A stretch of DNA of 48,100 bases from the IMG/VR virus record IMGVR_UViG_3300031133_000003, positions 1-48,100 of that record. One strand, written 5' to 3'. Shown here in pieces: positions 1-48,100 of the stretch (its first letter is position 1; every line of letters starts with the position of its first letter). The translations under genes were made by a program, and so were the position numbers. The notes below the pieces were generated by a model. That model did no database searches, was not told where the DNA came from, and saw only the letters and a list, made by a program, of their open reading frames with translations. The stretch is from a virus.

Positions 1-127
1 GTTCTCCATTTGTAAAGGGCGGGCTAGCTTAAAGCTGTCGGGGCAATGGCTCCAATGCCCACCTAACGGCATCCCTTCATTAAATTCCTTGAATTGTAAT
101 CCCATGTCTGTTATGGCAGCAATTCTG
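1..127. repeat. Exact 127-bp duplicate of 47974..48100 (circular-assembly overlap or terminal redundancy)
   Basis: Read directly: bases 1-127 (gttctccatttgtaaaggg...gcagcaattctg) are identical to the last 127 bases. The unit genome is therefore 47,973 bp. Confidence 0.95.
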
Positions 128-204
128 GCAGTACATCCAACAACCATTCCCAGGTGTTCGCCATAAATGCGCTCTACTAAGTCCCCAACTTTGAACTTAA
201 CCAA
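1..204 (-). CDS. ENK-tail mini-protein a (69 aa), cut by the window boundary
   Basis: TTG start at 204 with GGAGG 6 nt upstream, overlapping the stop of 197..775. Translation is MVKFKVGDLVERIYGE...ARPLQME; the last codons NK plus TAA lie across the junction (=47968..47973). Confidence 0.6.
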   Translation of the reverse strand, partial: MVKFKVGDLVERIYGEHLGMVVGCTARIAAITDMGLQFKEFNEGMPLGGHWSHCPDSFKLARPLQMEN

Positions 205-775
205 GTGCTACCTCCAAACTCTCTTTCAGATAAAAACGCTCTGGCAACAGCTTGACGCTTTCATCCAGAACGTATCCAACCACCTCACCTCGGAACACTA
301 AGCAAGCTTCTCTTTCATGAACACCAACAGCCCAATCACGATGAAAGGGGACAATGCGCGCCTCTTGATTCCTCACTTTCTGGAATGCCTCACCAACATC
401 AGGAAACTGACCAAGCATTGTCTTTCCAATCGCCTTGCTAGCGAAGTTTAAGCGTCCCATACGACGTGCTGGAGGCTCATCTAGGACATTCTTTAGTACC
501 AGGTTCTCATTGTTCAACCCCTGCTTATAACGCCGTACAGGCTTCCTCATAGCCATGTACACATCCTCTCCGTCAATGACATAGCCAAGAGGAGCGTGTG
601 AAGGGTCTAAGTCTAAATCAGCCACTAAAGCTTTGCTGTGCTTGTCAGTTTCTAAATCTGAAACAATCACAGTGTTCTTATCTTCCACCCCCACCACTAA
701 GCAAGGGCGTTGCTTATGAATCACCACAGTGTGGTAGAGGCGGGTTTTAACATCAGCTTCGCTCTCATAACGCAT
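197..775 (-). CDS. hypothetical protein (192 aa), embedded in the amide-ligase island
   Basis: Long ORF. Its ATG overlaps the stop of the upstream ENK gene (TAATG). No motif recognised. Confidence 0.7.
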   Translation of the reverse strand: MRYESEADVKTRLYHTVVIHKQRPCLVVGVEDKNTVIVSDLETDKHSKALVADLDLDPSHAPLGYVIDGEDVYMAMRKPVRRYKQGLNNENLVLKNVLDEPPARRMGRLNFASKAIGKTMLGQFPDVGEAFQKVRNQEARIVPFHRDWAVGVHEREACLVFRGEVVGYVLDESVKLLPERFYLKESLEVALG

Positions 776-1002
776 TATTTATTCTCCATTTGCTTAGGAC
801 GGCACACTGACAATGTACCCTCTTGGTAAGTGTTAGTTGCTCCGTTTTCCCAAGAAACTCTCACCCAGCCTTCCCTGTCATCTGGCTCATTTTCTATAAC
901 ATAACCCTTCACATTCGCTGGGTTGGTGCGCCCGTTCCAATACCTACGCAGCCCCTCTTCGTTGATATTAACTGCTGTACCGAGCCTTGGGGGCCAATTC
1001 AT
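775..1002 (-). CDS. ENK-tail mini-protein b (75 aa)
   Basis: ATGA overlap with the upstream ligase stop. Ends ..CRPKQMENK; its stop overlaps the next start. Confidence 0.65.
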   Translation of the reverse strand: MNWPPRLGTAVNINEEGLRRYWNGRTNPANVKGYVIENEPDDREGWVRVSWENGATNTYQEGTLSVCRPKQMENK

Positions 1003-1823: not shown

Positions 1824-1847
1824 TCCTACGTTTTAAATGATTGTTTA

Positions 1848-1858: not shown

Positions 1859-1860
1859 TG

Positions 1861-2094
1861 CTATTTGTTTACAAAAGATTTAGGCCCCAATACTTCAAAC
1901 CTATGCGCAAACATTCCATCAAGCCCTTCACACCAAACCAAGGTATCCTCCTCAACAACATCTGTGATATCAAAAGCCTTAACTTTATAACAGTTGCCAA
2001 TAAGAGGGGCATATTGCGAATGTCTGTTGGCTGCACTATCCACTACTCTTACACTGCATCCCTCTCGTATTTTAGTGTAACTTGGCTTTCCCAT
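1861..2094 (-). CDS. ENK-tail mini-protein c (77 aa; tail ..GPKSFVNK)
   Basis: ORF with GGAGAGG before the ATG. Ends AAC AAA TAG although no start codon is adjacent. Confidence 0.55.
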   Translation of the reverse strand: MGKPSYTKIREGCSVRVVDSAANRHSQYAPLIGNCYKVKAFDITDVVEEDTLVWCEGLDGMFAHRFEVLGPKSFVNK

Positions 2095-3277: not shown

Positions 3278-3278
3278 A

Positions 3279-3368: not shown

Positions 3369-3378
3369 AATGGCCTCT

Positions 3379-3594
3379 TTATTTATTTGTGAATGAGGTT
3401 TTAGATAAATGTCGGAAACATCTGGCATCTACATACTGTTTTCTTGTGCCGCCCTCAACCTGCAATCGGAATACTCCATCTCCTCTGTCCTCCAGAATAA
3501 GGCAGCGAGTCTTAATTGGATGGTAGTGCATAATAATTTCTCCACCACCTTCATTTGTGATTACAACTCTATCCCCTACCTTAAACTTGGCCAT
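3379..3594 (-). CDS. ENK-tail mini-protein d (71 aa; MAKFKVGD..., tail ..KTSFTNK)
   Basis: GGAGAG 8 nt before the ATG. N-terminus matches members a and j. Confidence 0.65.
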   Translation of the reverse strand: MAKFKVGDRVVITNEGGGEIIMHYHPIKTRCLILEDRGDGVFRLQVEGGTRKQYVDARCFRHLSKTSFTNK

Positions 3595-4228
3595 TCAATA
3601 AGCTCTCCAGTTTAGACAGATACCATTGTTGGCATGGATGTTCTTTACCAACCATCTCTGGATGAGGCTGGAAGCAGAAGCTGCGTGTCTCTGGATAGTA
3701 GACACTTTCCACTTCCACCTCATCATTCTTAGCCACCAACAAGCCACGCTTCTTGCCAATCTCTGACATATGAAGCTTGATGGTGCTACGCATCTCACTG
3801 CTCTGAGCTAACAGCTTCCCCTTCTTACCAATACGCATCATCTGGTGATGTGTAGAGGTGCAGGGGAATTCATTTCCTGTTTCTAAATCTACTACAGGGT
3901 GGGTGCCTGGAATGGCGTGGTTGTACACGTCCTGATACATCTTGCCACCATTCATCACATTCAGGAACTGACCGCCACGACAGATGCCAGCCATAAATTG
4001 ACCACGCTCTTTACAGGCGTTAAATACAGCCAGCTCTTCGGCATCTCGTGCCTTGCTGCTCCATGTTGTCTCATGCTGATGCTCTCCATACAGCTGAGGA
4101 GAGACATCAGAACCTCCCGTAAACTGAATGATGTCTGCCTTCTCAGCGCTATCTACCAGCTCATAACCCGCTGCCTGGAACATACGAGCGTAAGAAAAGC
4201 CACCACCTACAATATAAACCTTTTTCAT
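3581..4228 (-). CDS. class-I glutamine-amidotransferase-like / peptidase C26 (gamma-glutamyl hydrolase-like) protein
   Basis: GICRGGQ (nucleophile elbow), HHQ and FQPHPE (His-Glu) motifs. Its ATG overlaps the stop of ENK gene e (AAATGA). Confidence 0.8.
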   Translation of the reverse strand: MKKVYIVGGGFSYARMFQAAGYELVDSAEKADIIQFTGGSDVSPQLYGEHQHETTWSSKARDAEELAVFNACKERGQFMAGICRGGQFLNVMNGGKMYQDVYNHAIPGTHPVVDLETGNEFPCTSTHHQMMRIGKKGKLLAQSSEMRSTIKLHMSEIGKKRGLLVAKNDEVEVESVYYPETRSFCFQPHPEMVGKEHPCQQWYLSKLESLLNGQV

Positions 4229-4428
4229 TTGTTCACCATGTGTTTAAGTTTAGGGAGAGGTGAATATAGAGACATCTCTTCCTGATGGTCTTTACTAACA
4301 AACATAACTTGCTTGCTTTCAAACTGGAATACATAGGCGTTATCGTATGAACCCACACATCTAACCTTTGACTCCGGATGCTTGTAAGTACCCTTGCGTA
4401 AGTAGTAACTCCAAAGCTTGAACTTCAT
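4225..4428 (-). CDS. ENK-tail mini-protein e (67 aa from MKFKLW...; tail ..LKHMVNK)
   Basis: ATGA overlap with the stop of the 458-aa gene. The track ORF 4225..4449 starts further upstream. Confidence 0.6.
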   Translation of the reverse strand: MKFKLWSYYLRKGTYKHPESKVRCVGSYDNAYVFQFESKQVMFVSKDHQEEMSLYSPLPKLKHMVNK

Positions 4429-5801: not shown

Positions 5802-6005
5802 TTACTTGTTCTCCATTTGTAGTTTAATTTCTTTTACACGCCAAGAAAACATTGCCTCTACTTCCTCCAAAAAGAACAGAAGGTTTTCTTTGCCTTTTTC
5901 GGACTGTGACACAGTTAGCACCCGGCCTATGAACGGCGCATAAGCTGGGTTATATCTGTTCTTTTCACTATCCAGAACTTTAACCTTACTGCCAACTTTA
6001 ATCAT
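5802..6005 (-). CDS. ENK-tail mini-protein f (67 aa from MIKVGSKV...; tail ..IKLQMENK)
   Basis: GAGAGGG 8 nt before the internal ATG at 6005. The track ORF extends to 6056. Confidence 0.6.
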   Translation of the reverse strand: MIKVGSKVKVLDSEKNRYNPAYAPFIGRVLTVSQSEKGKENLLFFLEEVEAMFSWRVKEIKLQMENK

Positions 6006-8070: not shown

Positions 8071-8303
8071 TCAAGCCTCCGTAAAGCCTCTCCTAACGCT
8101 TTCTCCACGGTGTAATGGAGCTTGTAACGTGAATCATTGAGCTGTGATTCAATACGCCCAACGGCTGTTACAGAGCGCGGAGGAGTGTCTGTCTTATATT
8201 TCTTGCCTTTCTCTTTGCCTTTCATTTGATGTGTGTTCTTCTCAGCATCAAGAGGGGCTCCCTCAGTGAAAGGCCATTTATATGTTGGTTTGCAGCGTGG
8301 CAT
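8064..8303 (-). CDS. hypothetical basic protein (79 aa from MPRCKPTYKW...)
   Basis: AAAGGAA 8 nt before the ATG at 8303. The track ORF starts at 8339. Confidence 0.5.
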   Translation of the reverse strand: MPRCKPTYKWPFTEGAPLDAEKNTHQMKGKEKGKKYKTDTPPRSVTAVGRIESQLNDSRYKLHYTVEKALGEALRRLEC

Positions 8304-8313
8304 GATAGCATTT
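8303..8313 (-). repeat. copy 3 of 11-mer AAATGCTATCA (here it forms the spacer between the SD and the start codon)
   Basis: Read directly. Confidence 0.6.
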
Positions 8314-8536: not shown

Positions 8537-8746
8537 TTATTTATTCTCCATCTGCTTGGGAATGGACTTAAACACATCATATCCATAGTATCTATTGTAC
8601 TGTGCTGGACTTAATCGAATGCATCCGTCATCGTCCAAAAGTTTTCCACGCAGGCTGACTGCGTAAACAGTTCCTTCTGTCCAGCCCTCACGTTGCATAT
8701 CTTCTGGCATAGCCACAAGTTTCCACTTAGTGTTTGACATCTTCAT
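8537..8746 (-). CDS. ENK-tail mini-protein g (about 69 aa from MKMSNTKWKL...; tail ..SIPKQMENK)
   Basis: The track ORF 8537..8803 overlaps the upstream gene. An internal ATG preceded by GAGG is the more plausible start, but the start is uncertain. Confidence 0.55.
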   Translation of the reverse strand: MKMSNTKWKLVAMPEDMQREGWTEGTVYAVSLRGKLLDDDGCIRLSPAQYNRYYGYDVFKSIPKQMENK

Positions 8747-8927
8747 CAGGCCTCGTAGTAGTGAGTACGGCAATGCAACGGTCAGCACAGGAGGCATAGG
8801 CAAAGCCTTGATAGGCTAGTGCCTCCATCTCTTCTACAGTGATGGTTGATAAGTCATACGCCAACATAATAGGGCGCATTGTTACAGCGTTGAGCATTTG
8901 ATGACGTTTACGCGTTGATGATAGCAT
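8727..8927 (-). CDS. hypothetical protein (66 aa)
   Basis: AGGAG 9 nt before the ATG. The ATG lies inside 11-mer copy 4. Confidence 0.5.
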   Translation of the reverse strand: MLSSTRKRHQMLNAVTMRPIMLAYDLSTITVEEMEALAYQGFAYASCADRCIAVLTTTRPDEDVKH

Positions 8928-8929
8928 TT
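8919..8929 (-). repeat. copy 4 of 11-mer AAATGCTATCA
   Basis: Read directly. Confidence 0.6.
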
Positions 8930-13755: not shown

Positions 13756-14253
13756 ATGTTAATAGACAAGTCTTTGTTGAAATCAACTAATGGTATTCCT
13801 CTAACACAGAGTTTATTTTTAGAGATTGGATACACAGACTATGCCGTTTACACCCTCAAGGATGAGGACTATGAATACAAGGGGAAGGTTTTTCCTTCCC
13901 TTAAACGATTGTATTTAGATATGGAGGATGTAGGTGAATATTTATTCGCCACAGAGCATCTTTTGGGATGGGACCAATGGCGTAGATTGTGTGAAAATAA
14001 ACAAGTGGCAGAGCACATTGAGAAATGGCGTTATGAGCTTGAGTTGAAGCTGCGTTCAAAAGCAATTATGGAAATACAAAAAAGGTCTAATCTGGAGAAA
14101 GGTATCAGCGCCTCCCGCTGGTTAGCCGAGAAGGGCTGGGATAAAAGGCAAGCAGGTCGTCCTAGCAAGGCTGAGGTTGAACGAGAAACTAAGATGCAAG
14201 CTGACCTCCAGGGTTTCTATAGCGACGATTTAAAACGTATTGAGGGCTTATAA
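13756..14253 (+). CDS. putative terminase small subunit
   Basis: Position immediately upstream of, and overlapping (TAATG), the large terminase gene. Charged helical C-terminal half. Confidence 0.5.
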   Translation: MLIDKSLLKSTNGIPLTQSLFLEIGYTDYAVYTLKDEDYEYKGKVFPSLKRLYLDMEDVGEYLFATEHLLGWDQWRRLCENKQVAEHIEKWRYELELKLRSKAIMEIQKRSNLEKGISASRWLAEKGWDKRQAGRPSKAEVERETKMQADLQGFYSDDLKRIEGL

Positions 14254-15851: not shown

Positions 15852-15867
15852 TTAAGGATTTTAATAC

Positions 15868-27200: not shown

Positions 27201-29088
27201 CCCGGCTAGTCGCGCTGAGATTGGAGAAGCGGGTATTAGCTCTAAGATGGCTACAGATGCCCGCACCACCTGGGAATACATTCGCTCTATGGAGAATGGA
27301 TACCAGAACAGTATTGATGCTGGCTATCGTGCAATGTTCAACACTATGGCTGACCTGGTGGGCACTCGTGGATTTGGTAACACAGAAAGGGTTATTCGCT
27401 CTGCTGCGGCTGGACGTGGACCTACGGGGGCTGTTAAGAGCTTAGCGTTTAACCTGATGCTGGCACTAAACCCTCTCCGTCAGTTCCTGGTACAGAGCCA
27501 TCAGGCCATCATGCTCACTGCTTCATTCCCCACTTACACTGCTTCTCGTATGGTTCCTGACTTAGCTATTGTCATGACCAAGCATTTGGCAGAAGGGAAG
27601 AATGTTAAGATTCCTGACAACTTCTTCACTCAATGGGGGCGCACCCCAGAACAGGCTGAAGCTATGTTCCAGGCGCTTAAGAAGAGCGGTATTGCAGATG
27701 GCATTAAAGCGCATGAGCTGGTCCGTGAGGGCATGAACAGCTTAGCTGATGGCAGTGCATACACAGCTGCTCAGATGGGTACCAGCGCTCTTAGAACGGC
27801 TACAGCACCTCTTCGTACAACGCTTAAGGTGGCTCGTAAGGTTGGCTTCGACATGGGCGAATACCTTTCCTCTTCTGCTTCCTTCCTTGCTCACTATGAT
27901 GACGCACTGAAGAAAGGTGTGAAGATGGATGCAGCAGGAATTGAAGATACATTTGCCAAGAGTCGTAACTATGTGTATAACATGGACCGAGCAGGTGCCA
28001 TGCCTTATAACCATAACAACCTGGCTATGTTCACTCAGTTCTTGCAGGTTCCCCATAAAGCCATTACCCAGCTCCTGTTCAACCGTGGTATCTCTTCCAA
28101 GCAGCGTTTCGCTATGTCTGCTTTCATGGGAGCTATGTTTGGTCCTACAGCTGTTGTTGGCTTGGTGCCAGGTACAGGGGATGCAATGGAGGCTTTCTTC
28201 CACGACTTGTTTCCGGAAGACCCAACCACCCGTAACGCATTGCGTACAGGGCTTGAGAGTGTAATGCTAAACAACTTCTTCACCAGCTTGTACGGAGAGG
28301 AAGTGAATCTGGATTACAAATCTTTGGCTCCTCTTGATGCGTATGGGCTCACTGAGTTTGTTCAGACAGCTTTCGATGAAGGCATTACGAAAGTGGTAAC
28401 TAACAGCCCAGGTGGCTCTCTGTTGTTTGGTTCTAACCCCCGAGTGATGCAGGTGTTGTCCACCTTCGGCAGCTTGATGGGCATGGGTCCAGCTAAAGAG
28501 AAAGACCCTACCACTGTTGGTAACATGTTCATGGACATTGCCAATCTCTCATCCGGCTTCTCTAACGCCTACAAAGCTAAACAGGCATTGGAATATGGAC
28601 GTAAGATTGGCGCTCTCGGTGGTACAACAGACGGAACAGTGAACAGCTTTGAAGCTATTGCTCAAGCCTTCGGTATTCCTACAGCTGACCAGGAAGCTTC
28701 TCGTAAGATACTGGATAGCACTTGGAAGAGTCAAGAGGCATTTGACAATGATGTGAAGCAGACATTCAACAAGTATGCTAAGATAATCACTCAGGATGGC
28801 TTAACAGCTGACCAGTTTGAATATGCTATTAAGATGGCAGAGTTGGAGATGTCAGCGTATGGTAATAACCAGCGTGCTGCTGAGGTGTGGAACCAACAGC
28901 TCAAGAAACAACAGAGCAATGGTGACTACCGAATCATTGACAAAGTGATGGAGATGAGCGGGTGGGCTAAGAAGAGTGATGTGAATCGCTTGATTGACCA
29001 GGCACCAGGAATCACAGAAGAGCAGCGTAATAACCTTCGTGCTTTAACAGATTATAATTTCTCAATGCGAGATGATAAAGGAGAGTAG
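24238..29088 (+). CDS. large internal virion / DNA-ejection protein (1616 aa)
   Basis: Size and position after the tail-tube genes, as for T7 gp15/gp16. No catalytic motif recognised. Confidence 0.65.
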   Translation: MSQIDLFNQGTASYSVDDFNEDSAAVSPVTSMGTNRNVAAHAALLSPKPDEIPQVFNQSFDELNGQGQSQTADTMLANAQGETLSGLRTAAADLLTDPTKPDEWKRAALESISNPQNTLFDPRAMVATRAASQPIDGESDESGQLRGTVAAAITNVIAYQREKQKFFNEMKLRESENPSATEWVNTAEMFTPGTLGFKQARAFSSLNDSTLGTIASFFLPGSSKAAMADKFNRLPLEDRQAVMENTMNMLSADGQTIFMPSAADQGNLAAFRDIVDEGSYTVTQETVDNLVGVLDVVGIGGFLAKFTKGGAAAADAASTGTRGGPRSPTPETEWRTGNQRNPGTFDQNGNPSDPIRQWERMTPEERSWSRRFTVSETQPTAPMETIKDVNPQMARNLHQAVEADTSGDLAGALYGTAREDAIAHDIAPQISSVDGRVQSKVHNAERDSDFRFMPDAEVLDFVDNSGASYLSPAEKRVLRGNAVNDFQNTTGLAARKEMMSVEDLPDGLSLKAVYGPTDSGWANAADAVEQAQFAFRKYGIEPGNIQILARQADEYVPVSMEQAASLGQGDYLLQINHTHKFNIADMADEGWEAFDVKNNILDEWAKGTGKGAQGSLASNMLDPQSMLNFGLTKGATVSTARAAQTEARMGKLAENYIRSVKVLDKTEQQRLFEAIRQNNVKGQSFNYTDMVAEGYSQNAIKAAESWKVAQDTMYELTNRDLVKSYRSRGYGVMEHQDSGTRLFVKELNRTQLAGDIRVYDPVKGEVRPMTKEQISAHYDANGNIGKMHTPMTVDKQSVEYVLNTNKAGSTYVRALKDTDHVLSYRKGYYAVKYDNPHFIEQRLVDDAGRPILDENGKQAWKTVATADTVPNANRARQRLAAVRGGNWETDFRYRADLKGDGYDQAVISHMQAGGMSAQKVRGQRLEEALGDNNISNQVNIENPINSLIHSASSIANRVAFRDWLETAKARFMAQYSDVLPRAQGQVKFPASRAEIGEAGISSKMATDARTTWEYIRSMENGYQNSIDAGYRAMFNTMADLVGTRGFGNTERVIRSAAAGRGPTGAVKSLAFNLMLALNPLRQFLVQSHQAIMLTASFPTYTASRMVPDLAIVMTKHLAEGKNVKIPDNFFTQWGRTPEQAEAMFQALKKSGIADGIKAHELVREGMNSLADGSAYTAAQMGTSALRTATAPLRTTLKVARKVGFDMGEYLSSSASFLAHYDDALKKGVKMDAAGIEDTFAKSRNYVYNMDRAGAMPYNHNNLAMFTQFLQVPHKAITQLLFNRGISSKQRFAMSAFMGAMFGPTAVVGLVPGTGDAMEAFFHDLFPEDPTTRNALRTGLESVMLNNFFTSLYGEEVNLDYKSLAPLDAYGLTEFVQTAFDEGITKVVTNSPGGSLLFGSNPRVMQVLSTFGSLMGMGPAKEKDPTTVGNMFMDIANLSSGFSNAYKAKQALEYGRKIGALGGTTDGTVNSFEAIAQAFGIPTADQEASRKILDSTWKSQEAFDNDVKQTFNKYAKIITQDGLTADQFEYAIKMAELEMSAYGNNQRAAEVWNQQLKKQQSNGDYRIIDKVMEMSGWAKKSDVNRLIDQAPGITEEQRNNLRALTDYNFSMRDDKGE

Positions 29089-29090
29089 TT

Positions 29091-31295
29091 ATGGCGGGCT
29101 TGTTTGAAACACAAGACGTTGCAGCCCCTCAAATGGGGTTTAGTGCCCCGCAGGCTGTAGCGCCTGTATCAAATGCTTCCACTGTAGCTGCTGTGGGTCA
29201 GGGATTGACCCAGCTGTTAGGCACAGGGTTGCAGATGTATCAGAACCAACAGAAGGTGGAAGCACAGCAGAAGCAGGATAAGGTGGTGTCTGGCTTTGCC
29301 CAGAACATCGTGGCTTTAAATGCGGCAGTTGAGCAGGGGAGTATCACCCAAGCAGACGCACAGCGTCGTCAGCGTGCCATGTTCAATCAGGCAATTGCTA
29401 ATAACCCCCACCTCACTGATGACCTGGTTAAGCTGAACACCTCTATTGCTGGGAGCGCTGGCTTAGGCACTACGTTAGCGGAAGGCACCGCTGTTGACCA
29501 GCAGATTAAAGCTGACACTAAAGCTGCTACAGGTGCTGGCTTCATTCAGCCTGGTATGTCCCCAGAGCAGCAGGAGAAAGGGCTTAATCTCTATCGTCAG
29601 CAGCAGCAGGCTTTAAACCAGATGGACTTTGCTAGTAAGCAACTTGGTTTGCAGAACCAGCAACTGTCCCTCCAGGAGAAGCGCGCTAACATTGCTAATG
29701 CTCAGGTACAGCGAGCTAACGCAGCAGCTCAGCTACAAATGACACGTAACAAGCTTGCTGTGCAGAATGGGCTGTCAGATGTAGCCAATGTGTACGTACA
29801 AGATACCCTGGGTAAGATTGGGAGCTTGCAAGAGAAGCTTGCTAACAAACAAATTACCCCAGACCAGTTCTTGCAGGAAACACAGCAGTATCGTAATAAG
29901 TTCTACGCTGTAACCCAAGGCGCTCGTGGTGTTGCTGGTGGTGATTACATTGACACCCTCTCCTCTCCTCTGTTCAAGATTTTGGACGCTGCTGACAACG
30001 TAGCAAGTGGAAAGGTGAGTGCTGATGTAGCTAAGAACCAGCTGGACCATGCTCAAACTGTAGCTGCTCTTCCATTCATGAATGACCCTAAGATTGCAGC
30101 TATTGCAGCTCAGAGCAAAATCTTTAACGGCATCTTCAACCCGGTTGTACTGTCAGCGTTCGGTTCAGATGTAGTTAAGTCTATTCAAAAGAATACGCGA
30201 CAAGGCACCCCAGCTAACGCCGTATCTGATGACCCAGACGAGCAGGAAGCGCATACATCTTACACCAATGGGTTGAAGGAAGCAATCACTACGTTCTCCA
30301 CTAAGAGCCCAGCAGCGTCAGATTTGAAGGGTTTGCAGGGGGAGCTGGAGACAAACTTGAATCAGGTGTTGAAGAGTGTAGGTACTATGGGGGCTTCTGT
30401 AGATAATCCCACTCAGTTCAACAACGTGATGAAGTTCTTTGCTGACCCGACATTCTTAGAGTTTCAGCAGAAAGGTGGGAAGATTGACCCATCCCTCTCT
30501 CAGCAAGCTAAGACTGTTATTCAGGAAAACTACCAGAGCCAGCTGATTCCAGCTATCCGCACTGAATGGGAGAATGCTAAGACAGTTACCAGCACCACTC
30601 TTCCAGCTGGTGGATTCCCTGCTATGGGAGCTTCAACTCCTACAGCAACCACCACAGAAGCAGACAGCTCCAAAGTGGTTAGTTATCGCTGGACAGGTCA
30701 GAGCTTGCAGTTTGTTCCTTCTGCTGGATACGAGCGTAACCGTGCAGCACTAGCTAAGGCTAAAGAGCTTAACCAGAAAGTTAGTCCGTTGGTTCAGCGC
30801 TTGGTGATGGCAGATGCACATATGGAGGGAAATCAAGACTACAGCAAATACTTCAAAGAATTAGAGCCAGCAATCTTTGGCAGCAGTGGGGACCTGCCTG
30901 ACACTAGTTCTCAGAATGATGTTCAGCAGTCAGCACAGAGCACTAAAGCCCCAAAGAGTAAAGCTGCTTGGAGTGAACAGTGGGGTGGTAATCCCAGCAG
31001 CGTCCCAGGCATGGTAAGCCAAGGGGATATTGACTTAACTACTAGACCACAGGTGAAGAATGCAGATGGAAGTATTTCGACAGTGCGTTCTATGTCCTTC
31101 CGTGACGAAGAGCTAGGCGTTGAGGTATTGGTGCCTACTGTTAGCGAAGACGGAAGAATCATGTCTGATGAAGAAGCTGTTAACCAGTATTTTAAAACTG
31201 GAAAGCACTTAGGTATGTTCCGCACTCCAGCTGCGGCAGACAAATACGCAGAGGAACTGCATAACAGGCAGGCTAAGCTTTATGGGATTGAATGA
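29091..31295 (+). CDS. internal virion protein (734 aa), Gln/Ala-rich coiled-coil N-terminal half
   Basis: Position and composition. Confidence 0.6.
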   Translation: MAGLFETQDVAAPQMGFSAPQAVAPVSNASTVAAVGQGLTQLLGTGLQMYQNQQKVEAQQKQDKVVSGFAQNIVALNAAVEQGSITQADAQRRQRAMFNQAIANNPHLTDDLVKLNTSIAGSAGLGTTLAEGTAVDQQIKADTKAATGAGFIQPGMSPEQQEKGLNLYRQQQQALNQMDFASKQLGLQNQQLSLQEKRANIANAQVQRANAAAQLQMTRNKLAVQNGLSDVANVYVQDTLGKIGSLQEKLANKQITPDQFLQETQQYRNKFYAVTQGARGVAGGDYIDTLSSPLFKILDAADNVASGKVSADVAKNQLDHAQTVAALPFMNDPKIAAIAAQSKIFNGIFNPVVLSAFGSDVVKSIQKNTRQGTPANAVSDDPDEQEAHTSYTNGLKEAITTFSTKSPAASDLKGLQGELETNLNQVLKSVGTMGASVDNPTQFNNVMKFFADPTFLEFQQKGGKIDPSLSQQAKTVIQENYQSQLIPAIRTEWENAKTVTSTTLPAGGFPAMGASTPTATTTEADSSKVVSYRWTGQSLQFVPSAGYERNRAALAKAKELNQKVSPLVQRLVMADAHMEGNQDYSKYFKELEPAIFGSSGDLPDTSSQNDVQQSAQSTKAPKSKAAWSEQWGGNPSSVPGMVSQGDIDLTTRPQVKNADGSISTVRSMSFRDEELGVEVLVPTVSEDGRIMSDEEAVNQYFKTGKHLGMFRTPAAADKYAEELHNRQAKLYGIE

Positions 31296-40388: not shown

Positions 40389-40595
40389 TTATTTTACAGC
40401 TGATTTGCTCACAGCAAACACTTGCTCAATACCTTCCGGCTGGAACAACACCATTGTCTCACTACCTGCTTCAATGATGCCAGCCACTTTCCCTACAGCC
40501 CCCTTCTCTAAATAAGAAGTGATGGGCTGGTCATGCTCATCCGTTGTTGGATATGCAATCTGACGCGTTAACACTACGTTCTGACCTGTTCTCAT
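40389..40595 (-). CDS. hypothetical protein (68 aa)
   Basis: Its ATG overlaps the stop of ENK gene h. Confidence 0.5.
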   Translation of the reverse strand: MRTGQNVVLTRQIAYPTTDEHDQPITSYLEKGAVGKVAGIIEAGSETMVLFQPEGIEQVFAVSKSAVK

Positions 40596-40822
40596 TTATT
40601 CTCCCATTGAATTGGTTTCTCTAATTTGTAGTCCATCAAAATGTGTTTAACATTAAGGATGGTGTTCACTCTCCATTCTCCAGAGCCAACAGCGCAGGTG
40701 ACAATCCCATGATTACCAACAACTCCAAAAGGAAGCACGTAGTCGTAATACACCTCCCCTCGATTCTTAGGAACGTATCTCTTACCAAGCTTTAGCTTAG
40801 ATAAGACATCCATCGCACACAT
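40592..40822 (-). CDS. ENK-tail mini-protein h (76 aa; tail ..EKPIQWENK)
   Basis: AGGAGG 5 nt before the ATG. Confidence 0.6.
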   Translation of the reverse strand: MCAMDVLSKLKLGKRYVPKNRGEVYYDYVLPFGVVGNHGIVTCAVGSGEWRVNTILNVKHILMDYKLEKPIQWENK

Positions 40823-40988
40823 AATCTCCTCCTAAATCATCTTGAAGCTGTTGTGAATATGAGTCTTGCACCACTTGATGGATGCTCTCCCCTAGCTGCT
40901 CCAGCTCTTCAAAGCTGAACGATACAACGTTGCTCTCTGTGAAAGCAATGAAATATTTGTTGGTGTATTTGTCAAAGGTGATATTCAT
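40797..40988 (-). CDS. small acidic protein (63 aa)
   Basis: ATGA overlap with the upstream micro-ORF. Confidence 0.5.
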   Translation of the reverse strand: MNITFDKYTNKYFIAFTESNVVSFSFEELEQLGESIHQVVQDSYSQQLQDDLGGDYVCDGCLI

Positions 40989-41134
40989 TTCTTCTCCTGT
41001 TCTATTTTCTCATGAAGTTGGAACAAACATTCATATAACCATTCATCCCTCAAAGCCATCTGACCAAAGTCCTTCTTGATTTGGAGGAGACGGTCAAGCT
41101 CCGCCTTCACTGTATCTTTATTTACTGGTTTCAT
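40985..41134 (-). CDS. micro-ORF (49 aa, MKPVNKDTVKAELDRLLQIKKDF...)
   Basis: GGTGAG before the ATG. Starts 8 nt after the polymerase stop. Confidence 0.35.
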   Translation of the reverse strand: MKPVNKDTVKAELDRLLQIKKDFGQMALRDEWLYECLFQLHEKIEQEKK

Positions 41135-41142
41135 AACTCACC

Positions 41143-43062
41143 TTAGTGGATTTCATACCAATTCTTTCCAATTGACGCGTCTCCTATCTGTGGAACTTTA
41201 AACGCGTAGTAATCACTAGCGTCAGCGTAAGCCTTAAGTACAATCTTAGCTACATCCTGAGCAATTTCTTCTCTGCATTCGGTTGTAAATTCATCGTGAT
41301 TGAAGTTTACAATCAAGAAATCATCACCCCATTTGTACCTCTCCGACAAGTATTGATGTGCCAGATTATACGCCTTCGACATAAAAATCGCTTCATCATT
41401 CTGTAAGGTGTAAACTAGAACAGCGTGCTCTGACTGTATGAAGTTCGGGGCACCGTCTATTGATGTCACCCATCCATCGTAGTATTCAAGCTTATTCCAC
41501 TTGTTCATTCTACGCTTAGCTCTCTTTCTCCATTCAGCAGTGAGTTCATCCATAACCCTAGCCTGGGCTGGGAACAACTCACGCAACGCCTCCCTAATCT
41601 CAGCACCAACCTCCTTATTTCCATGGACCATTCTACCTAGCTTTGGGTCCCCGGCTCCAAACTTCCAGCCAAAGCCAATGTTTTTCCCTGCACCGCGCTT
41701 AATCCGCTTTAGGCCATACTTATCACAAATCTTATTAACGCGATTCATAACAAGTGTGTGTGCATCCGTGCCCTGCTCCTTGTCTCCCTCCAAAAGGATG
41801 CGTGTAAGCTCTGGGTCGTTAGCTCTTGATGCGAGCATTCTGTCCTGGCAACCCGCTGCATCGCACCCGACTAGTGTATACCCCTCACGAGCAATGAAAC
41901 ACTTACGCATCATGGGACCCATAAATGCATCAGCATTAGGGACGTTAACAATCTGCTTGTGCTTCATCCTCCGGGTGTCTGCCAGACCCGATACGATGCT
42001 CGATAATCTTCCATCCTCCCTCACGTTAGCGAGATAACCGCGCATAATAGAAGCTCGGTCATTCACACGAGAACGAAGAACAATCAGATTACCAGCTACC
42101 CCCTCAACACCCTCAAAGGTAGTATCTTTGTTCAGCTTAGGTGATGTGTTCTCCCCAGCATCATTTGTATTCCAAGCATCTGGAATCCAGCCGTTATCTA
42201 GGAGGAATCTCTTAACCTCATCATCACTACCTAGCTTTATCTTCCTCACCTCAACCCGCGAGAAAGGAGCTGCTACAATGTGGCTGTCCTCTCCAAACAC
42301 CTTCAACACTGACTCAGAATAGATAGGTTTCTCAGGGGAGCTGCCCTTCATGAACACTTTTTTAACGTATTTGTAAGGGCCTCCACCCTTCTCTTTAGTT
42401 TCAGCTGGTTTGCAGATATAGGGAAGACTAGCCTCCAGCATCCGGTCTATTCGCCCCACCCAATGAGCAGCAAGATTAAGTGAGCGCTCGATGTGTTTAA
42501 CGTCTAAGCGCCAACCTGCATCCTCCTGCATTTGTAGATTCTCAAACAACTTGAAGGTCAGCATATGTGCATCCCTCCAATTGAGGCCCTTCCCTTCCTT
42601 CATCAGCTCATGGTACACAGCAACGTTAATGGCTGTATCTTCCGAACAACGATGAAGCATCTCCTCACTGAATGTCTCCCAATCTTCATGCTCAGGCTTA
42701 CCGCGCCCTACACGATATCCCCAGCAGCCTAAGCCATGTGGGCTCTTCATCGCCTTTGGGTCTCCCCTGGCTGTCAAAGGGGCCTGACGATTTGGACATT
42801 GCAAACGAGACATGAGGAGCGTGTCAACCTTCTTCCCTTTATACTCATATCCTAACACTTTCTTCACAGCTGGTAGGTCATAGCTGAGCACATTATGTCC
42901 AATTAACACATCACAGCTGTCCATGAACGCTACAGCTTCCTTCATCTGATGTGGGCGGAAAATATCAACTTGCTTGTCATCCAGGCTACGGAACACCATG
43001 CAGTGAATTGTGTCGGGTGTCAAGCCATTCGCCTCTATGTCGAACACCCTTACCTTTGTCAT
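41143..43062 (-). CDS. family-A DNA polymerase with 3'-5' exonuclease domain
   Basis: Exonuclease motifs VFDIEANGL and HNVLSYDLP. Polymerase motifs DAAGCQDRMLA, RGAGKNIGFGWKFG and NFNHDE. Confidence 0.92.
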   Translation of the reverse strand: MTKVRVFDIEANGLTPDTIHCMVFRSLDDKQVDIFRPHQMKEAVAFMDSCDVLIGHNVLSYDLPAVKKVLGYEYKGKKVDTLLMSRLQCPNRQAPLTARGDPKAMKSPHGLGCWGYRVGRGKPEHEDWETFSEEMLHRCSEDTAINVAVYHELMKEGKGLNWRDAHMLTFKLFENLQMQEDAGWRLDVKHIERSLNLAAHWVGRIDRMLEASLPYICKPAETKEKGGGPYKYVKKVFMKGSSPEKPIYSESVLKVFGEDSHIVAAPFSRVEVRKIKLGSDDEVKRFLLDNGWIPDAWNTNDAGENTSPKLNKDTTFEGVEGVAGNLIVLRSRVNDRASIMRGYLANVREDGRLSSIVSGLADTRRMKHKQIVNVPNADAFMGPMMRKCFIAREGYTLVGCDAAGCQDRMLASRANDPELTRILLEGDKEQGTDAHTLVMNRVNKICDKYGLKRIKRGAGKNIGFGWKFGAGDPKLGRMVHGNKEVGAEIREALRELFPAQARVMDELTAEWRKRAKRRMNKWNKLEYYDGWVTSIDGAPNFIQSEHAVLVYTLQNDEAIFMSKAYNLAHQYLSERYKWGDDFLIVNFNHDEFTTECREEIAQDVAKIVLKAYADASDYYAFKVPQIGDASIGKNWYEIH

Positions 43063-43280
43063 TTGTTCTCCAATTGAATAGGACGAACTTTCTCAACTAT
43101 AACCTGGTCATAGTGCTCTTTCAACATATCCAGGTACTCTTCGGATGACTGCCCTTCTCCCCAAGAGCCTTCATCAACGCACTCCTCTGAGTTGATGGAT
43201 AGCTCCTGCCATTCCTTATGGTTCAGATATACCACCCACCCAGCTTCTTTATGAGTTACTTTATGCGTCCATTTCGCCAT
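43059..43280 (-). CDS. ENK-tail mini-protein i (73 aa, acidic; tail ..VRPIQLENK)
   Basis: Overlaps the sigma gene end by 20 nt. Its stop overlaps the polymerase ATG. Confidence 0.6.
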   Translation of the reverse strand: MAKWTHKVTHKEAGWVVYLNHKEWQELSINSEECVDEGSWGEGQSSEEYLDMLKEHYDQVIVEKVRPIQLENK

Positions 43281-45557: not shown

Positions 45558-45788
45558 TTATTTGTTAATAAAAAGACGCGGTGAGATAAGTGTCAGGGCC
45601 TTAGCCGAAATCACATCTCCTTTACCGATGTATCTGTCGCTTTCTTTGTGTGAGACTACCACAACCCTGACTTTCTGTTGTTCCTCGAAAACAGCCTCTA
45701 CCCGCATAATTGCAGCTGAGGTTGTGTATCCATAAACTCCATCAGCATACGCATTCCCGGTTGCCTTATCTCCAACCTTAAATTTCAT
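45558..45788 (-). CDS. ENK-tail mini-protein j (76 aa; MKFKVGD..., tail ..SPRLFINK)
   Basis: ATGA overlap with the ATP-grasp stop. Its own stop is followed by a separate AGGAG for the primase. Confidence 0.6.
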   Translation of the reverse strand: MKFKVGDKATGNAYADGVYGYTTSAAIMRVEAVFEEQQKVRVVVVSHKESDRYIGKGDVISAKALTLISPRLFINK

Positions 45789-46546
45789 AGCATCTCCTTA
45801 AATCGTTTAGCATAGCCATCTAGCGTAGTGCCTGACAAACCTGGGGCTGTGTTTACCTCCAACACTACATACAAATCATCCTTCTTATTCCAGACGATGT
45901 CTACAGCACCGAAGTCTAAACCAAGAGCTTCTACAGCTATGATAGCATTCTTGCTTGCCACTTCATTCTCTTCAACACCTTCACGAGCAAAGATGAATCC
46001 ACCGTCAAGATTGCGTATCTGCCAATTCACCTCTTCCTTTGGAACGTCAAGCTTACGCGCCTTACGCTGAATGTCCACCACCTTACCCATAAAGACATGG
46101 TAACGATATTCTTCCTGCTTCTTCACATAGGCAGTATACAGCGGAGCATCCACCAAATCATCTGCACTGTCAGCCATAACGATGCCGACACCACTATGCC
46201 CGTTAAGAACAGTGCGACACACAACGCTACGAGAATCATCTTCCTGGAGATACGCACTAGCTTGTTCCTTGCTTGTGAAGAATGGGGGAATAGAGACATT
46301 CGCTTGTTGGAAAAGTTCAAAAGATTTTAATTTATTTGAAGCGTTACGGATGTTCTCTGGTTTGTTGAGGATGTGACATGCTGCCACTTGGTCAGGAAGA
46401 GCAGCACTTCCCCAGTTGATTACACGCTTTAATTGGCTGCCTCTAAACTTGCTGTTGCCATGCTTAATGCGTTTAACTTCTAATGCCTGGGACAGAGACT
46501 TCGCCCCTTCACTGAATGGGTTATGTGAATAGATGTATGTCTTCAT
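45785..46546 (-). CDS. ATP-grasp ligase (RimK-like)
   Basis: VVCRTVLNGHSGVGIV, EEYRYHVF, and LGLDFGAVDIVWN..LYVVLEVNTAPGL. Likely start is MKTYIY at 46546, overlapping the stop of ENK gene k. Confidence 0.8.
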   Translation of the reverse strand: MKTYIYSHNPFSEGAKSLSQALEVKRIKHGNSKFRGSQLKRVINWGSAALPDQVAACHILNKPENIRNASNKLKSFELFQQANVSIPPFFTSKEQASAYLQEDDSRSVVCRTVLNGHSGVGIVMADSADDLVDAPLYTAYVKKQEEYRYHVFMGKVVDIQRKARKLDVPKEEVNWQIRNLDGGFIFAREGVEENEVASKNAIIAVEALGLDFGAVDIVWNKKDDLYVVLEVNTAPGLSGTTLDGYAKRFKEML

Positions 46547-46737
46547 TTGTTTTCCATTTGAGTGAATATTTTCTTTAGGTTGTGTGCCCAAGTACACCAT
46601 CTTCCGTCTCCAAATGAAGGCAAGATGCTTTGAACCGTACAGGTAGCATCTCCCGGCTCATGCCTGTAGATATAAACCTTCTCTCCGGCCTTTAGGTATT
46701 TTCCCTCATTAGCTATTACAACATGCGTAGCTTTCAT
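46543..46737 (-). CDS. ENK-tail mini-protein k (64 aa; tail ..IFTQMENK)
   Basis: ATGA overlaps at both ends. Confidence 0.6.
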   Translation of the reverse strand: MKATHVVIANEGKYLKAGEKVYIYRHEPGDATCTVQSILPSFGDGRWCTWAHNLKKIFTQMENK

Positions 46738-46964
46738 TTGTTCTCCCAATTAAGAATCACCTTACTAACATCCCGCTCAACATTGTGAGACCAGACATCA
46801 AACACTCGTCCAGGTGCTAGCCGGTTGAGCCCCTCACAGAAATTCTTTACAACAACAAACTTAGCACTATCTCCATTCCGGCTAACGAGCTTAGCATGAA
46901 CGAACAGATTATCATGCCGTCTATGCATCCTCACCTTATACAAGGTTTTCTTATTCAGCTTCAT
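46734..46964 (-). CDS. ENK-tail mini-protein l (76 aa; tail ..VILNWENK)
   Basis: ATGA overlaps at both ends. Confidence 0.6.
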   Translation of the reverse strand: MKLNKKTLYKVRMHRRHDNLFVHAKLVSRNGDSAKFVVVKNFCEGLNRLAPGRVFDVWSHNVERDVSKVILNWENK

Positions 46965-47161
46965 TTGTTCACCATGTACTTGGGCTTGACAGATTTCATC
47001 ACCCACTGTAGACGCTCTAGTTGCTCTTTTGTATAGTCTCCAAACCACCCTCCAAAAGAGCCATCCGCATAAGCAGCTCTCACCTTACGGCTGCGCTCGT
47101 TCCATTCAATATTATGGCTTAAAACCGTTTCAATAGTTCCAATGTGTGTCGCTTTATCCAT
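46961..47161 (-). CDS. ENK-tail mini-protein m (66 aa; tail ..VKPKYMVNK)
   Basis: TAATG overlap with the amidoligase stop. GGGAG 7 nt upstream. Confidence 0.6.
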   Translation of the reverse strand: MDKATHIGTIETVLSHNIEWNERSRKVRAAYADGSFGGWFGDYTKEQLERLQWVMKSVKPKYMVNK

Positions 47162-47967
47162 TACCAATCTCCCATATACGCGTATTGTTGAACACGACGA
47201 ACACTGTCACGAATAGCATCATCAAATGCTGCTGTCCATTCAATGTCCTTAGCAAATGGCCCTAACACCTTAGTGAAGAAGCCATAGCTGCCCATCATAG
47301 AAGAATCAGAGACAATCTGTGCTGGGTTATCAATCTCACGAGCCAGATGTTTGAGGTGTTGCAAAAGACGGCACCACCAAGCTACAGCCTCTAAATCCCC
47401 ATCAGCACGCCATGCACGGAATTCAACGGAGCCATAGTCACCCAATGCCTTAACATTGATTGAAGCGTAACGCAGGTCATCTGTGTGCAAGATGCGCAGG
47501 TCTTGCTGCTTAACGCTCTCCATCAACATCTCAATCAGGTATTCAGCATCTGAGGCGCGGAGACAGAACAGGTTGCCAATGCGATGTTCCCCGCATTTGT
47601 TAACCAGAATTTCCTCAACCACCAGATAAAGACTGATGTAGTTGAACAGCTGTGTCACTGTCAGGTCAGAACAGTTGATATGAACGTGCACACCAGCGTT
47701 AGGGCTGTTCTTAATCTTACTACCTTGTGTCTCCCAGGCTGCTTTCAGCTCTGCCAGAGCAGCGTTCTCAGCGCCAAAGGGAATGGGTTTACGGAGGACA
47801 TATTCATATGATTCACCACGCAGGGAGCCATCAGCTTCGCTCTTCCAAACCTTTGTGTCTACATATGGGAGGTTGGCTCCCTCTGTTTCAATCTCAATGC
47901 CCTGATGGTCTGTGTATTGTCCATCAATGCGCAGGAGAGATTTCACTGTCTTTTTTTCGTATTTCAC
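47161..47967 (-). CDS. Amidoligase_2-type carboxylate-amine ligase
   Basis: GIEIETEG, NAGVHVHIN and YGSVEFRAW motifs (glutamine-synthetase/GCS2-like ligase pattern). GTG start directly after the TAA of ENK gene a. Confidence 0.7.
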   Translation of the reverse strand: MKYEKKTVKSLLRIDGQYTDHQGIEIETEGANLPYVDTKVWKSEADGSLRGESYEYVLRKPIPFGAENAALAELKAAWETQGSKIKNSPNAGVHVHINCSDLTVTQLFNYISLYLVVEEILVNKCGEHRIGNLFCLRASDAEYLIEMLMESVKQQDLRILHTDDLRYASINVKALGDYGSVEFRAWRADGDLEAVAWWCRLLQHLKHLAREIDNPAQIVSDSSMMGSYGFFTKVLGPFAKDIEWTAAFDDAIRDSVRRVQQYAYMGDW

Positions 47968-48100
47968 TTATTTGTTCTCCATTTGTAAAGGGCGGGCTAG
48001 CTTAAAGCTGTCGGGGCAATGGCTCCAATGCCCACCTAACGGCATCCCTTCATTAAATTCCTTGAATTGTAATCCCATGTCTGTTATGGCAGCAATTCTG
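47968..48100 (-). CDS. 3' part of ENK-tail mini-protein a (the same gene as 1..204, seen in the duplicated end)
   Basis: ..SFKLARPLQMENK then TAA at 47968-47970. Confidence 0.6.
   Translation of the reverse strand, partial: RIAAITDMGLQFKEFNEGMPLGGHWSHCPDSFKLARPLQMENK
47974..48100. repeat. Exact 127-bp duplicate of 1..127
   Basis: Read directly. Confidence 0.95.

Follow-up and report, generated by a model that had tools for sequence, protein, structure and literature searches.

A recurrent C-terminal tail on small proteins of a Citrovirus-like phage coincides with the coupling signal of the next gene and may also be a peptide motif

The closest described systems are of four kinds: translational-coupling junctions of the ATGA or TAATG type with an embedded Shine-Dalgarno (SD) sequence; T4-type PeSL elements and lambdoid linker sequences, which are boundary sequences for the modular shuffling of small early phage genes; LysW carriers, small proteins with an acidic tail at the C-terminus that a RimK-family ligase makes use of; and YorP of the Bacillus subtilis SPbeta prophage (2HEQ), together with small SH3-like or MIB/HERC2-like phage proteins. 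Literature searches yielded no account of the tail presented here or of what the phage ligase cluster beside it does and, to our knowledge, the tail matches no beta-clamp or ssrA-like motif.

As in known coupling junctions, GGAG lies 5-9 nt before an overlapping or abutting next start, and the SD nucleotides of the tail are conserved solely where a start follows. Unlike in these junctions, one tail sequence is reused 13-21 times per genome, behind small ORFs only and always in the same upstream frame, and the peptide is kept after coupling is lost. With PeSL elements and lambdoid linkers it shares the short repeat at the borders of small accessory ORFs and an ORF content between conserved genes that differs among close relatives, including the body swap described below. 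However, the Citrovirus repeat lies inside the coding region as a fixed-frame peptide, it contains a ribosome-binding site and lacks the promoter and stem-loop, and its role in recombination is putative.

The window, i.e. the whole stretch of 48,100 nt that was analysed (positions 1 to 48,100 of IMG/VR record IMGVR_UViG_3300031133_000003), belongs to a Citrovirus-like phage, and the tails are a trait of Citrovirus-type podophages (family Zobellviridae). An earlier note, made from the sequence alone, had listed 13 ORFs ending in N-K as unique in this genome. All were found, on the minus strand (Table 1; twelve complete ORFs and the wrapped ORF a), and no further ORF of at least 40 aa on either strand of the window ends in this way. 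Translation confirmed their lengths of 64-77 aa. Since window positions 1-127 are identical to 47974-48100, an assembly overlap, the end of ORF a lies at 47968 (CAA ATG GAG AAC AAA TAA). The set of tails in the earlier note was correct but its order did not follow the ORF list, EIKLQMENK being the tail of f and not of c. The shared N-termini are present as well (xKFKVGD in a, d and j), as is the recurrent proline, at -7 in eight ORFs and at -9 in e; it is encoded by CCT, CCC, CCA and CCG. In the window lineage, the motif is extended to [RK]-P-x-Q-hydrophobic-E-N-K. With at most one mismatch, the nucleotide core TGGAGAAYAAATRA occurs 10 times in the window, each time at the end of a mini-ORF, against 0.11 times in shuffled sequences.

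Junction by junction, ten of the 13 stops were confirmed to overlap or abut a start. Mini-ORFs e, h, i, k, l and m end in an ATGA overlap, and the other types are TAATG (b), TAA-ATG (f), TAA-GTG (a) and TAAC-ATG (g). An SD-like sequence is located 5-9 nt before ATG or GTG in ten of the 13 tails, as the variants GGTG or GGAA in e, m and k and as GGAG in the remaining coupled ones. For the RimK-like ATP-grasp gene, the most likely start codon is the ATG overlapping the k stop at 46546, and not the one at 46600. A frameshift fusion to the downstream gene was ruled out, as there is no slippery heptamer, and no Rfam family reached its gathering score anywhere in the window.

Table 1. Tail-bearing mini-ORFs of the window and the coupled ATP-grasp gene (body classes as defined in the text)
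Feature	Position	Strand	Length and body	C-terminal tail	Junction and neighbourhood
Mini-ORF a, 5' part	1..204	minus	69 aa, class A (xFKVGDxV)	RPLQMENK	Rest at 47968-47973
Mini-ORF a, tail and junction	47968..47981	minus		TGGAGAACAAATAA	Directly followed by GTG start of Amidoligase_2 (47161-47967)
Mini-ORF b	775..1002	minus	75 aa, SH3/YorP-like body	RPKQMENK	TAATG overlap with 192-aa orphan (197-775)
Mini-ORF c	1861..2094	minus	77 aa	GPKSFVNK	Uncoupled, without GGAG; next start ~38 nt off; promoter-like AATGCTATCAT after c
Mini-ORF d	3379..3594	minus	71 aa, class A	SKTSFTNK	Uncoupled; start overlaps end of C26/GATase gene
Mini-ORF e	4225..4428	minus	67 aa	KLKHMVNK	GGTGA SD variant; overlap with C26/GATase gene (3581-4228)
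Mini-ORF f	5802..6005	minus	67 aa, body similar to c	IKLQMENK	Abuts 458-aa orphan (4425-5801)
Mini-ORF g	8537..8746	minus	69 aa	IPKQMENK	TAAC-ATG
Mini-ORF h	40592..40822	minus	76 aa	KPIQWENK	Overlap with 68-aa ORF (40389-40595)
Mini-ORF i	43059..43280	minus	73 aa, class B-like (xWTH)	RPIQLENK	Overlap with DNA polymerase gene (41143-43062)
Mini-ORF j	45558..45788	minus	76 aa, class A	SPRLFINK	Uncoupled; primase gene with own AGGAGAG SD 10 nt after j
Mini-ORF k	46543..46737	minus	64 aa, class B-like (KATH)	IFTQMENK (ATG GAA AAC AAA TGA)	Overlap with ATP-grasp gene
Mini-ORF l	46734..46964	minus	76 aa	VILNWENK	Overlap with k
Mini-ORF m	46961..47161	minus	66 aa, class B-like (KATH)	KPKYMVNK	Overlap with l; start overlaps amidoligase stop (TAATG)
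RimK-like ATP-grasp gene	45785..46546	minus			Coupled to k by stop/start overlap

The same phenomenon is seen in every Citrovirus relative examined, where each genome or locus has 7-21 such small ORFs. These end in K, E or D depending on the lineage, and in V or T in metagenome homologues. The complete genome of CVT22 contains 20 tails; it is of the E type, and its gp66 has kept a tail of the K type. Vibrio phage VPMCC5 lacks a uniform tail, and such ligase genes are absent from its annotation table.

At the DNA level, the tail YTG-GAG-AAY-AAA-TRA is composed of the SD sequence GGAG, an A-rich spacer and a stop codon. In a non-redundant dataset comprising 132 tails (11 genomes or loci), 102 are directly coupled to a next gene, with offsets of -4 (42 tails), -1 (31), 0 (28) and +1 (1). 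At the third position of codon -4, G is present in 101 of the 102 coupled tails versus seven of the 30 uncoupled ones (Fisher p = 1.5e-18), and codon -3 is GAG in 97 versus 10 (Fisher p = 4e-12), where several of the uncoupled tails are orthologous and their counts are thus not fully independent. The difference at codon -4 indicates that the GGAG part is under nucleotide selection. The M/L/W-E codons are the GGAG SD sequence of the next gene and demonstrably under selection as nucleotides, and the earlier view that the motif lies outside any ribosome-binding site had to be abandoned. GGAGAAY serves as SD sequence in a few intergenic leaders as well, and part of the Asn codon preference might likewise be a nucleotide-level effect.

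The tail might be a pure by-product of translation-initiation signals with no function of its own as a peptide, spelled in the upstream frame by the preferred SD, spacer and stop-start arrangement, copied with tandemly duplicated mini-ORFs and homogenised by recombination. This would fit with 77% of the tails having GGAG 5-9 nt ahead of the start that follows and with its G positions relaxing in uncoupled tails. At locus L008, position -4 is occupied by residues as diverse as V, Q, E and R, yet its codon is always xxG if coupled. The genome-specific last residue points in the same direction, as does the GGAGGA of another lineage, which gives LEDYL. In VR7901_45, moreover, the same DNA motif is translated in a different frame, ending ...SGE. 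This is the sole such case, and the general idea that the motif falls into other reading frames in relatives, an outcome named beforehand as refuting a conserved peptide, was therefore rejected.

Several observations make a pure by-product rather unlikely. First, at tight junctions the tail is found behind 61 of 101 small ORFs versus one of 39 large genes (p = 3e-11), the latter being equally tightly coupled through varied SD sequences. Second, the register is fixed relative to the upstream stop, whereas the distance to the downstream ATG varies (5, 8 or 9 nt). Third, the variation is codon-periodic: TTG/CTG, AAT/AAC and GAT/GAC all vary, the Pro, Leu and Asn codons change synonymously (Pro -7 is encoded by four different codons in the window), and the Asn codon of coupled tails shows 27 synonymous and no non-synonymous deviations. 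Among ORFs picked by their N-terminal motif alone, Asn is at -2 in 65 of 65 and the genome-type last residue is present in 63 of 65. Fourth, where no gene follows, GGAG has decayed by synonymous changes (TTA GAA) and hydrophobic-x-Asn-x is kept, the peptide surviving the loss of GGAG in ~22 independent uncoupled tails. Such tails read TTA/CTA GAA AAY... (LEN kept) or end in F-[VTI]-N-K, L-I-N-E and similar. Glu -3 is lost in ~1/4 of the uncoupled tails, and is therefore largely a ribosome-binding constraint. Based on these patterns, the tail appears to be more than a by-product of a ribosome-binding site and to behave like a conserved peptide tag. Selection on the peptide, as originally proposed, is supported by the codon-periodic variation, the synonymous changes and the hydrophobic-x-N-x retained where ribosome binding is dispensable. 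Separately, the synonymous G-to-A changes in uncoupled tails possibly reflect selection against stray SD sequences, which would inflate the synonymous to non-synonymous ratio.

Taken at both levels, the tail is probably a dual-use element on small accessory early genes, combining a coupling junction with a C-terminal short linear motif. The last four codons and the stop, YTG-GAG-AAY-RAN-TRA, form the translational-coupling junction: GGAG is the SD sequence, AAYRAN provides the spacing, and the stop overlaps the start of the following gene or directly abuts it (ATGA, TAATG or TAA-ATG). A ribosome ending the mini-ORF would be handed to the downstream gene, often an enzyme gene. The substitution patterns suggest that the same codons encode a hydrophobic-(E)-N-x-COOH linear motif on a disordered tail, for which a common docking tag for one putative partner would be the most likely role. 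Of the roles proposed in the earlier note, a shared docking peptide is thus a possible one. The uniformity inside each genome, together with a last residue specific to the lineage, is best explained by a cassette-like turnover and by recombination in which the mini-ORFs retain the resident junction.

The proteins carrying the tail do not form the single diverged paralogous family that was first proposed. After trimming of the tails, similarity between the bodies within the window is limited to the pairs c-f and i-m, and 82 tail ORFs fall into 54 BLAST clusters. The two largest body classes are class A, consisting of YorP/SH3-like xFKVGDxV proteins, and class B, of the PxWATH type. When compared by hhalign, these gave a Prob of 0.07% if trimmed and, if untrimmed, a match limited to the last 11 columns. 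A single family was rejected on these grounds, and the tail is apparently carried by at least two unrelated kinds of bodies, and others besides. The structure model of k (pLDDT 52.7) is too poor to judge its fold or the disorder of its tail, so that unrelatedness of the folds is a matter of profile comparison only.

AlphaFold2 predicts a five-stranded SH3-like barrel for b (pLDDT 77.5) with residues 71-75 below 50, hence a tail that is predicted to be disordered beyond the barrel. The top PDB match of this model in Foldseek is YorP (2HEQ; E = 2.7e-4, TM 0.68 (TMq)). Only the class A part of the 13 ORFs resembles this fold, and the tail lies outside it and varies by lineage. The b body has 810 sequence relatives, many of which are stand-alone proteins of 65-90 aa, and its homologues elsewhere have other tails or none. 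No Pfam family reached its gathering score for the ten ORFs b-k, the best being MIB_HERC2 with 17 bits versus 33.5. PHROGs, searched with the 13 ORFs and seven proteins of relatives, returned only families with no assigned function, for b, a and one CVT22 protein. A homologue search with k alone retrieved only k itself, and searches with the class A and class B alignments retrieved Citrovirus-type proteins only.

A body swap was found in the close relative L017. Its flanking genes are 94% identical to the window, but an unrelated 67-aa ORF stands in place of a, and identity resumes exactly at CCTTTACAAATGGAGAACAAATAAGTG; the breakpoints lie at the stop/start overlap and at the tail. The tail (15-24 nt) could be read as chiefly a homology patch for the exchange, duplication and deletion of selfish or accessory mini-ORF cassettes, both from one gene junction to another and among co-infecting relatives. 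Homologous bodies at different junctions are in line with this, k being located upstream of the ATP-grasp gene in the window and its Pecta homologue upstream of the DNA polymerase gene, as are the K-type tail of gp66 in CVT22 and the number of mini-ORFs per junction, which differs between genomes. As the main function of the tail, this is possible but not favoured: if homology were what is selected, third codon positions should not be the ones preferentially left free, cassettes that follow large genes have no common repeat on their 5' sides, and no recombinase or site-specific machinery is implicated. Moreover, the swap in L017 can equally be explained by allelic replacement via the conserved flanking genes.

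The neighbouring enzyme genes offer two further readings. According to the first, which takes up the main idea of the earlier note, the tail might serve the adjacent ATP-grasp, Amidoligase_2 or COOH-NH2 ligase as an acceptor or a recognition handle, with C-terminal or Glu side-chain modification as in RimK and LysW. Like LysW/ArgW carriers and RimK-modified ribosomal protein S6, the mini-ORF products are small proteins with a conserved C-terminal tail and an adjoining RimK-family ATP-grasp gene, the LysW tail being acidic. Ten of the 13 tail ORFs of the window lie inside the ligase cluster (~1/3 of the early region; binomial p = 0.0015), tails and cluster are found together in all Citrovirus genomes examined, and a GGACT gamma-glutamyl cyclotransferase gene is present among the LEDYL-tailed ORFs of L016. 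Nevertheless, such a handle is improbable. In Paundecimvirus TC6, the enzyme cluster is complete and its gene order the same, with no uniform tail, which undoes the proposed tie, and tail ORFs are also found in front of primase, DNA polymerase and exonuclease genes. The C-terminal residue (K, E, D, V or T) is a misfit with a RimK-type acceptor, which likewise speaks against that part of the proposal. Unlike in LysW/ArgW and S6, the terminal residue is not a conserved Glu. Glu -3 is dispensable in uncoupled tails, and thirteen to 21 different 'carriers' with many unrelated bodies per genome would be without precedent.

The other reading, a degron through which the phage HslV-like peptidase or else a host protease would time the removal of early proteins, is very doubtful as well. 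The b tail is C-terminal and predicted to be disordered, and an HslV-like peptidase is encoded in the window, three Klebsiella phages and Pecta; tblastn matched it in L001, L003, L004 and L005. However, tblastn found no HslV-like gene in the complete CVT22 genome despite its 20 tails, which weakens the idea. In addition, the tail is polar and charged, whereas known E. coli C-terminal degrons, e.g. ssrA LAA, are non-polar. A specific link of the tail to the ATP-grasp or HslV genes is thus not supported. A Pup- or ubiquitin-like modifier was rejected, as the tails end in E-N-K, V-N-K and the like and lack a C-terminal GG, GGQ or GGE.

A comparable tail occurs in the phage contigs L014-L016, where several neighbouring and apparently unrelated small ORFs end in (I/L)-E-D-(F/Y)-L. 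Blastn of the LEDYL-tail sequences against isolate phages gave no match, and tblastn only a domain inside a 457-aa Pectobacterium phage protein. The codons of this tail vary synonymously, at every third position in the EDFL tails, with GAG changed to GAA where no gene follows; a pure by-product would not be expected to behave in this way, the more so as one of these tails has no downstream gene. Tentatively, phages might carry guilds of unrelated small early proteins with a lineage-specific C-terminal address tag inside the coupling signal of the next gene, directed to one common partner. The tag would be hydrophobic-E-N-x-COOH in Citrovirus and L-E-D-[YFW]-L-COOH in the other lineage; candidate partners are a protease adaptor, a ligase or peptidase system, or a host hub protein. 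If so, this would be a principle for tagging phage accessory proteins that evolved convergently and has so far gone unrecognised.

Should the Citrovirus tail act as a peptide, it would make a dozen or more 'hypothetical' early proteins of each phage accessible through one experimental handle, and be an example of a ribosome-binding site co-opted into a protein motif. Read conservatively, the analysis is a warning that downstream translation signals can spell out conserved C-terminal motifs where genomes are compact. It also supplies a rule for calling and delimiting small Citrovirus genes, documents that near-identical phages exchange mini-ORF bodies and keep the junction, and removes an attractive but unsupported link to the ATP-grasp/amidoligase cluster. 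Against the peptide reading, for a last residue that is uniform within a genome and different between lineages, homogenisation at the DNA level is an easier explanation than co-evolution with a partner.

All thirteen minus-strand mini-ORFs described in the earlier note (a to m, 64-77 aa) are present in the window and, among window ORFs of at least 40 aa, the N-K ending is limited to them; the tails it listed are correct as a set, in an order that differs from a to m. On the nucleotide level, the tail reads ...CAA ATG GAG AAY AAA TRA, with the Pro at -7 encoded by CCT, CCC, CCA and CCG. Allowing at most one mismatch, the core TGGAGAAYAAATRA is found 10 times in the window against 0.11 expected, each time at the end of a mini-ORF. 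In ten mini-ORFs, the stop overlaps or abuts the following start (ATGA, TAATG, TAA-ATG, TAA-GTG or TAAC-ATG). Judging from the relatives and from its ATGA overlap with k, the true start of the ATP-grasp gene is probably the downstream ATG (see table).

The window represents a podophage genome of about 48 kb in a circular assembly. The minus strand encodes its early and middle genes, the plus strand its structural genes. The 127 bases shared by both ends are an overlap left by the assembler, the contig being circular or terminally redundant; the true length is therefore about 47,973 bases, and ORF a is complete. The nearest relatives are Citrobacter phage CVT22 (76% amino-acid identity for the DNA polymerase), Klebsiella phages Klyazma, VR7901 and Asterion, and Erwinia phage Pecta, placed in the genus Citrovirus of the Zobellviridae in records with a full taxonomy line.

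The earlier note had located the motif outside any ribosome-binding site. Instead, the [MLW]-E codons spell xTG-GAG, which places a GGAG Shine-Dalgarno sequence 5-9 nt ahead of the next gene's start. If a tail counts as coupled when it leads directly into the start of an ORF of at least 40 codons, 102 of 132 non-redundant tails qualify. Counted from the C-terminus, codon -4 has G as third base in 101/102 coupled versus 7/30 uncoupled tails (p = 1.5e-18), while codon -3 is GAG in 97/102 versus 10/30 (p = 4e-12). In locus L008, position -4 holds chemically unrelated residues (V, Q, E or R), and the codon is xxG whenever a start follows. We therefore consider it very likely that the tail is a coupling junction.

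Several observations bear on selection on the peptide itself. Tight junctions carry the tail behind 61 of 101 small ORFs versus 1 of 39 large genes (p = 3e-11); the Shine-Dalgarno sequences behind large genes are assorted. The register of the motif is fixed to the upstream stop, with variable spacing to the downstream ATG. Conservation begins sharply with codon -4 and follows the codon period: variation falls on synonymous positions (TTG/CTG, AAT/AAC, GAT/GAC) and on the second base of the stop codon. The Asn codon of coupled tails shows 27 synonymous and no non-synonymous deviations. Among ORFs selected independently of the tail, by the N-terminal motif xFKVGDxV or PxWATH alone, Asn is present at -2 in 65/65 and the genome-type last residue in 63/65. 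Where no start follows, as ahead of a terminator or of the primase promoter region, synonymous changes (TTA or CTA, then GAA) have removed GGAG and L-E-N-x is retained. Other uncoupled tails have the Glu replaced and keep hydrophobic-x-N-x: the window has FVNK, FTNK and FINK, CVT22 has LINE and IINE, and Klyazma has LGNK. As caveats, the synonymous G-to-A changes could stem from selection against stray Shine-Dalgarno sequences, some uncoupled tails are orthologues, hence not independent, and a few intergenic leaders likewise use GGAGAAY. Additional selection on the tail peptide is nevertheless probable. The earlier note was right in treating the tail as a real feature, probably selected as peptide, and had overlooked its Shine-Dalgarno and coupling nature. 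Separately, in L001, L004, L005, L010 and L012 the tail is followed, just downstream of the pre-primase mini-ORF, by TAAATATTCTCC, the reverse complement of GGAGAATATTTA and hence an inverted copy of the tail motif. Together with an intact GGAG it would give a hairpin of about 8 bp; the tails there are mutated to TTA or CTA GAA.

Tails of this kind terminate 7-21 small ORFs in each Citrovirus genome or locus examined, confirming that the phenomenon extends to the whole genus. The Klebsiella phages and three IMG/VR loci have LENK (TTGGAGAATAAATAA), whereas the end is LENE for CVT22 and locus L009, xENE for L008 and LEND for Pecta; V or T is also possible as last residue in metagenomic homologues from a b-group profile search. 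A uniform tail was not found in two further Zobellviridae, Vibrio phage VPMCC5 and Pseudomonas phage TC6. In the 46-aa ORF VR7901_45, this DNA motif (CTGGAGAATAAATAAATG) is read in a different frame, giving the end ...SGE; the ORF is probably left over from a cassette that was deleted.

A single paralogous family, as previously proposed, does not hold. With tails trimmed, similarity within the window is limited to the pairs c-f and i-m, and the 82 tail ORFs form 54 BLAST clusters. Trimmed profiles of the two largest body classes (xFKVGDxV and PxWATH-type) share nothing (hhalign Prob 0.07%), while the untrimmed profiles match in the last 11 columns only. Modelled with its orthologues, b is a predicted SH3-like barrel (pLDDT 77.5; below 50 for the last five residues, QMENK), with prophage protein YorP as top PDB match; the model of k was too poor for use. 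The b body has 810 relatives among 1.84 billion library proteins. Of 60 stand-alone homologues, 26 end in ..EN-x, 11 in ..E-D-[FYW]-[LM], 4 in ..IY and 19 otherwise, so one body carries different tails by lineage and, within one genome, one tail sits on different bodies.

There are also signs of turnover among the mini-ORFs. Contig L017 is 94% identical (nt) to the window over the COOH-NH2 ligase, b and the 192-aa orphan, and at the position of a holds an unrelated 67-aa ORF with the same last seven codons. Similarity ends directly after the TTGGTTAA stop/start overlap and restarts exactly at CCTTTACAAATGGAGAACAAATAAGTG, which covers the final seven codons and the start of the amidoligase gene. 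Comparison of the two sequences shows purifying selection on b (dN/dS 0.16); m has only 52% protein identity, keeping PKYMVNK, and its flanking enzymes are 96-99% identical. Homologous bodies occur at different junctions in different genomes. CVT22 gp66 ends in SLENK (K-type), whereas NE is the ending of the other 19-20 CVT22 tails. Pecta, whose tails end in ND, has a 268-aa exonuclease with the end ILENE. Both are possible imports from phages of another tail type. In the Klebsiella phages, HNH genes are inserted at several junctions that hold mini-ORFs in other genomes; in Asterion, the primase/helicase is annotated as two pieces around an HNH endonuclease gene.

Regarding function, the order GATase, amidotransferase, COOH-NH2 ligase, 190-aa orphan, amidoligase, ATP-grasp, large orphan is the same in Citrovirus and Paundecimvirus, with mini-ORFs interleaved in Citrovirus only. 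The sole gain for the earlier idea that the tail is a substrate of these enzymes, tied to the ATP-grasp gene, is that 10 of the 13 window tail ORFs lie within this cluster (p = 0.0015). It is not supported: the Paundecimvirus TC6 carries the complete cluster, identically ordered, and lacks the tails, replication genes are also preceded by tails and the C-terminal residue is not conserved. The suggested HslV degron loses as well, since the 20 tails of CVT22 occur in a genome that lacks an HslV-like gene. A shared docking motif for a putative partner is the best functional guess, with low confidence in any specific partner. Literature searches returned no description of the tail.

As a parallel, three contigs of other phage lineages contain neighbouring small ORFs with a common EDFL or LEDYL end (TTGGAGGACTACCTATGA). 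These codons spell the Shine-Dalgarno sequence GGAGGA where an ATGA overlap follows, and the peptide is retained where no gene follows. The codons differ synonymously at each third base, as in gag gat ttt ctg, gag gac ttt tta and gaa gat ttc ttg.

Finally, the window holds 10 copies of AATGCTATCAT where 1.3 are expected. Most lie on the early strand, and they often directly follow a stop; the relatives have ...TGCTATCATCAAAC at equivalent places. AATGCTATCAT may serve as a promoter recognised by the sigma factor that the phage encodes.

Coordinates of features in the window and in the compared genomes and loci
Feature	Sequence	Position	Strand	Remark
Identical ends	window	1-127; 47974-48100		
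ATP-grasp gene	window	45785-46600	minus	longest ORF, start 46600; alternative start ATG at 46546
AATGCTATCAT	window	1847-1857, 6935-6945, 8302-8312, 8918-8928, 45939-45949	minus	plus 1-mismatch copies
Conserved cluster	window	197-5801 + 45785-47967		gene order
Conserved cluster	TC6 (L007)	9707-18691		gene order
ORF a	window	1-204	minus	
67-aa ORF	L017	1485-1656		position of ORF a
VR7901_45	VR7901 (L004)	31118-31258		
gp66	CVT22 (L002)	40843-41064		
Exonuclease	Pecta (L003)	28362-29168		
Primase/helicase	Asterion (L005)	13900-16231		
Small ORFs	L014	106-1100		ends EEDFL, IEDFL, IEDFL; flanked by tRNA-like sequence
Small ORFs	L015	966-1423		ends K-x-L-E-D-Y-L
Small ORFs	L016	2986-4626		ends K-x-L-E-D-Y-L; GGACT (gamma-glutamyl cyclotransferase) gene among them
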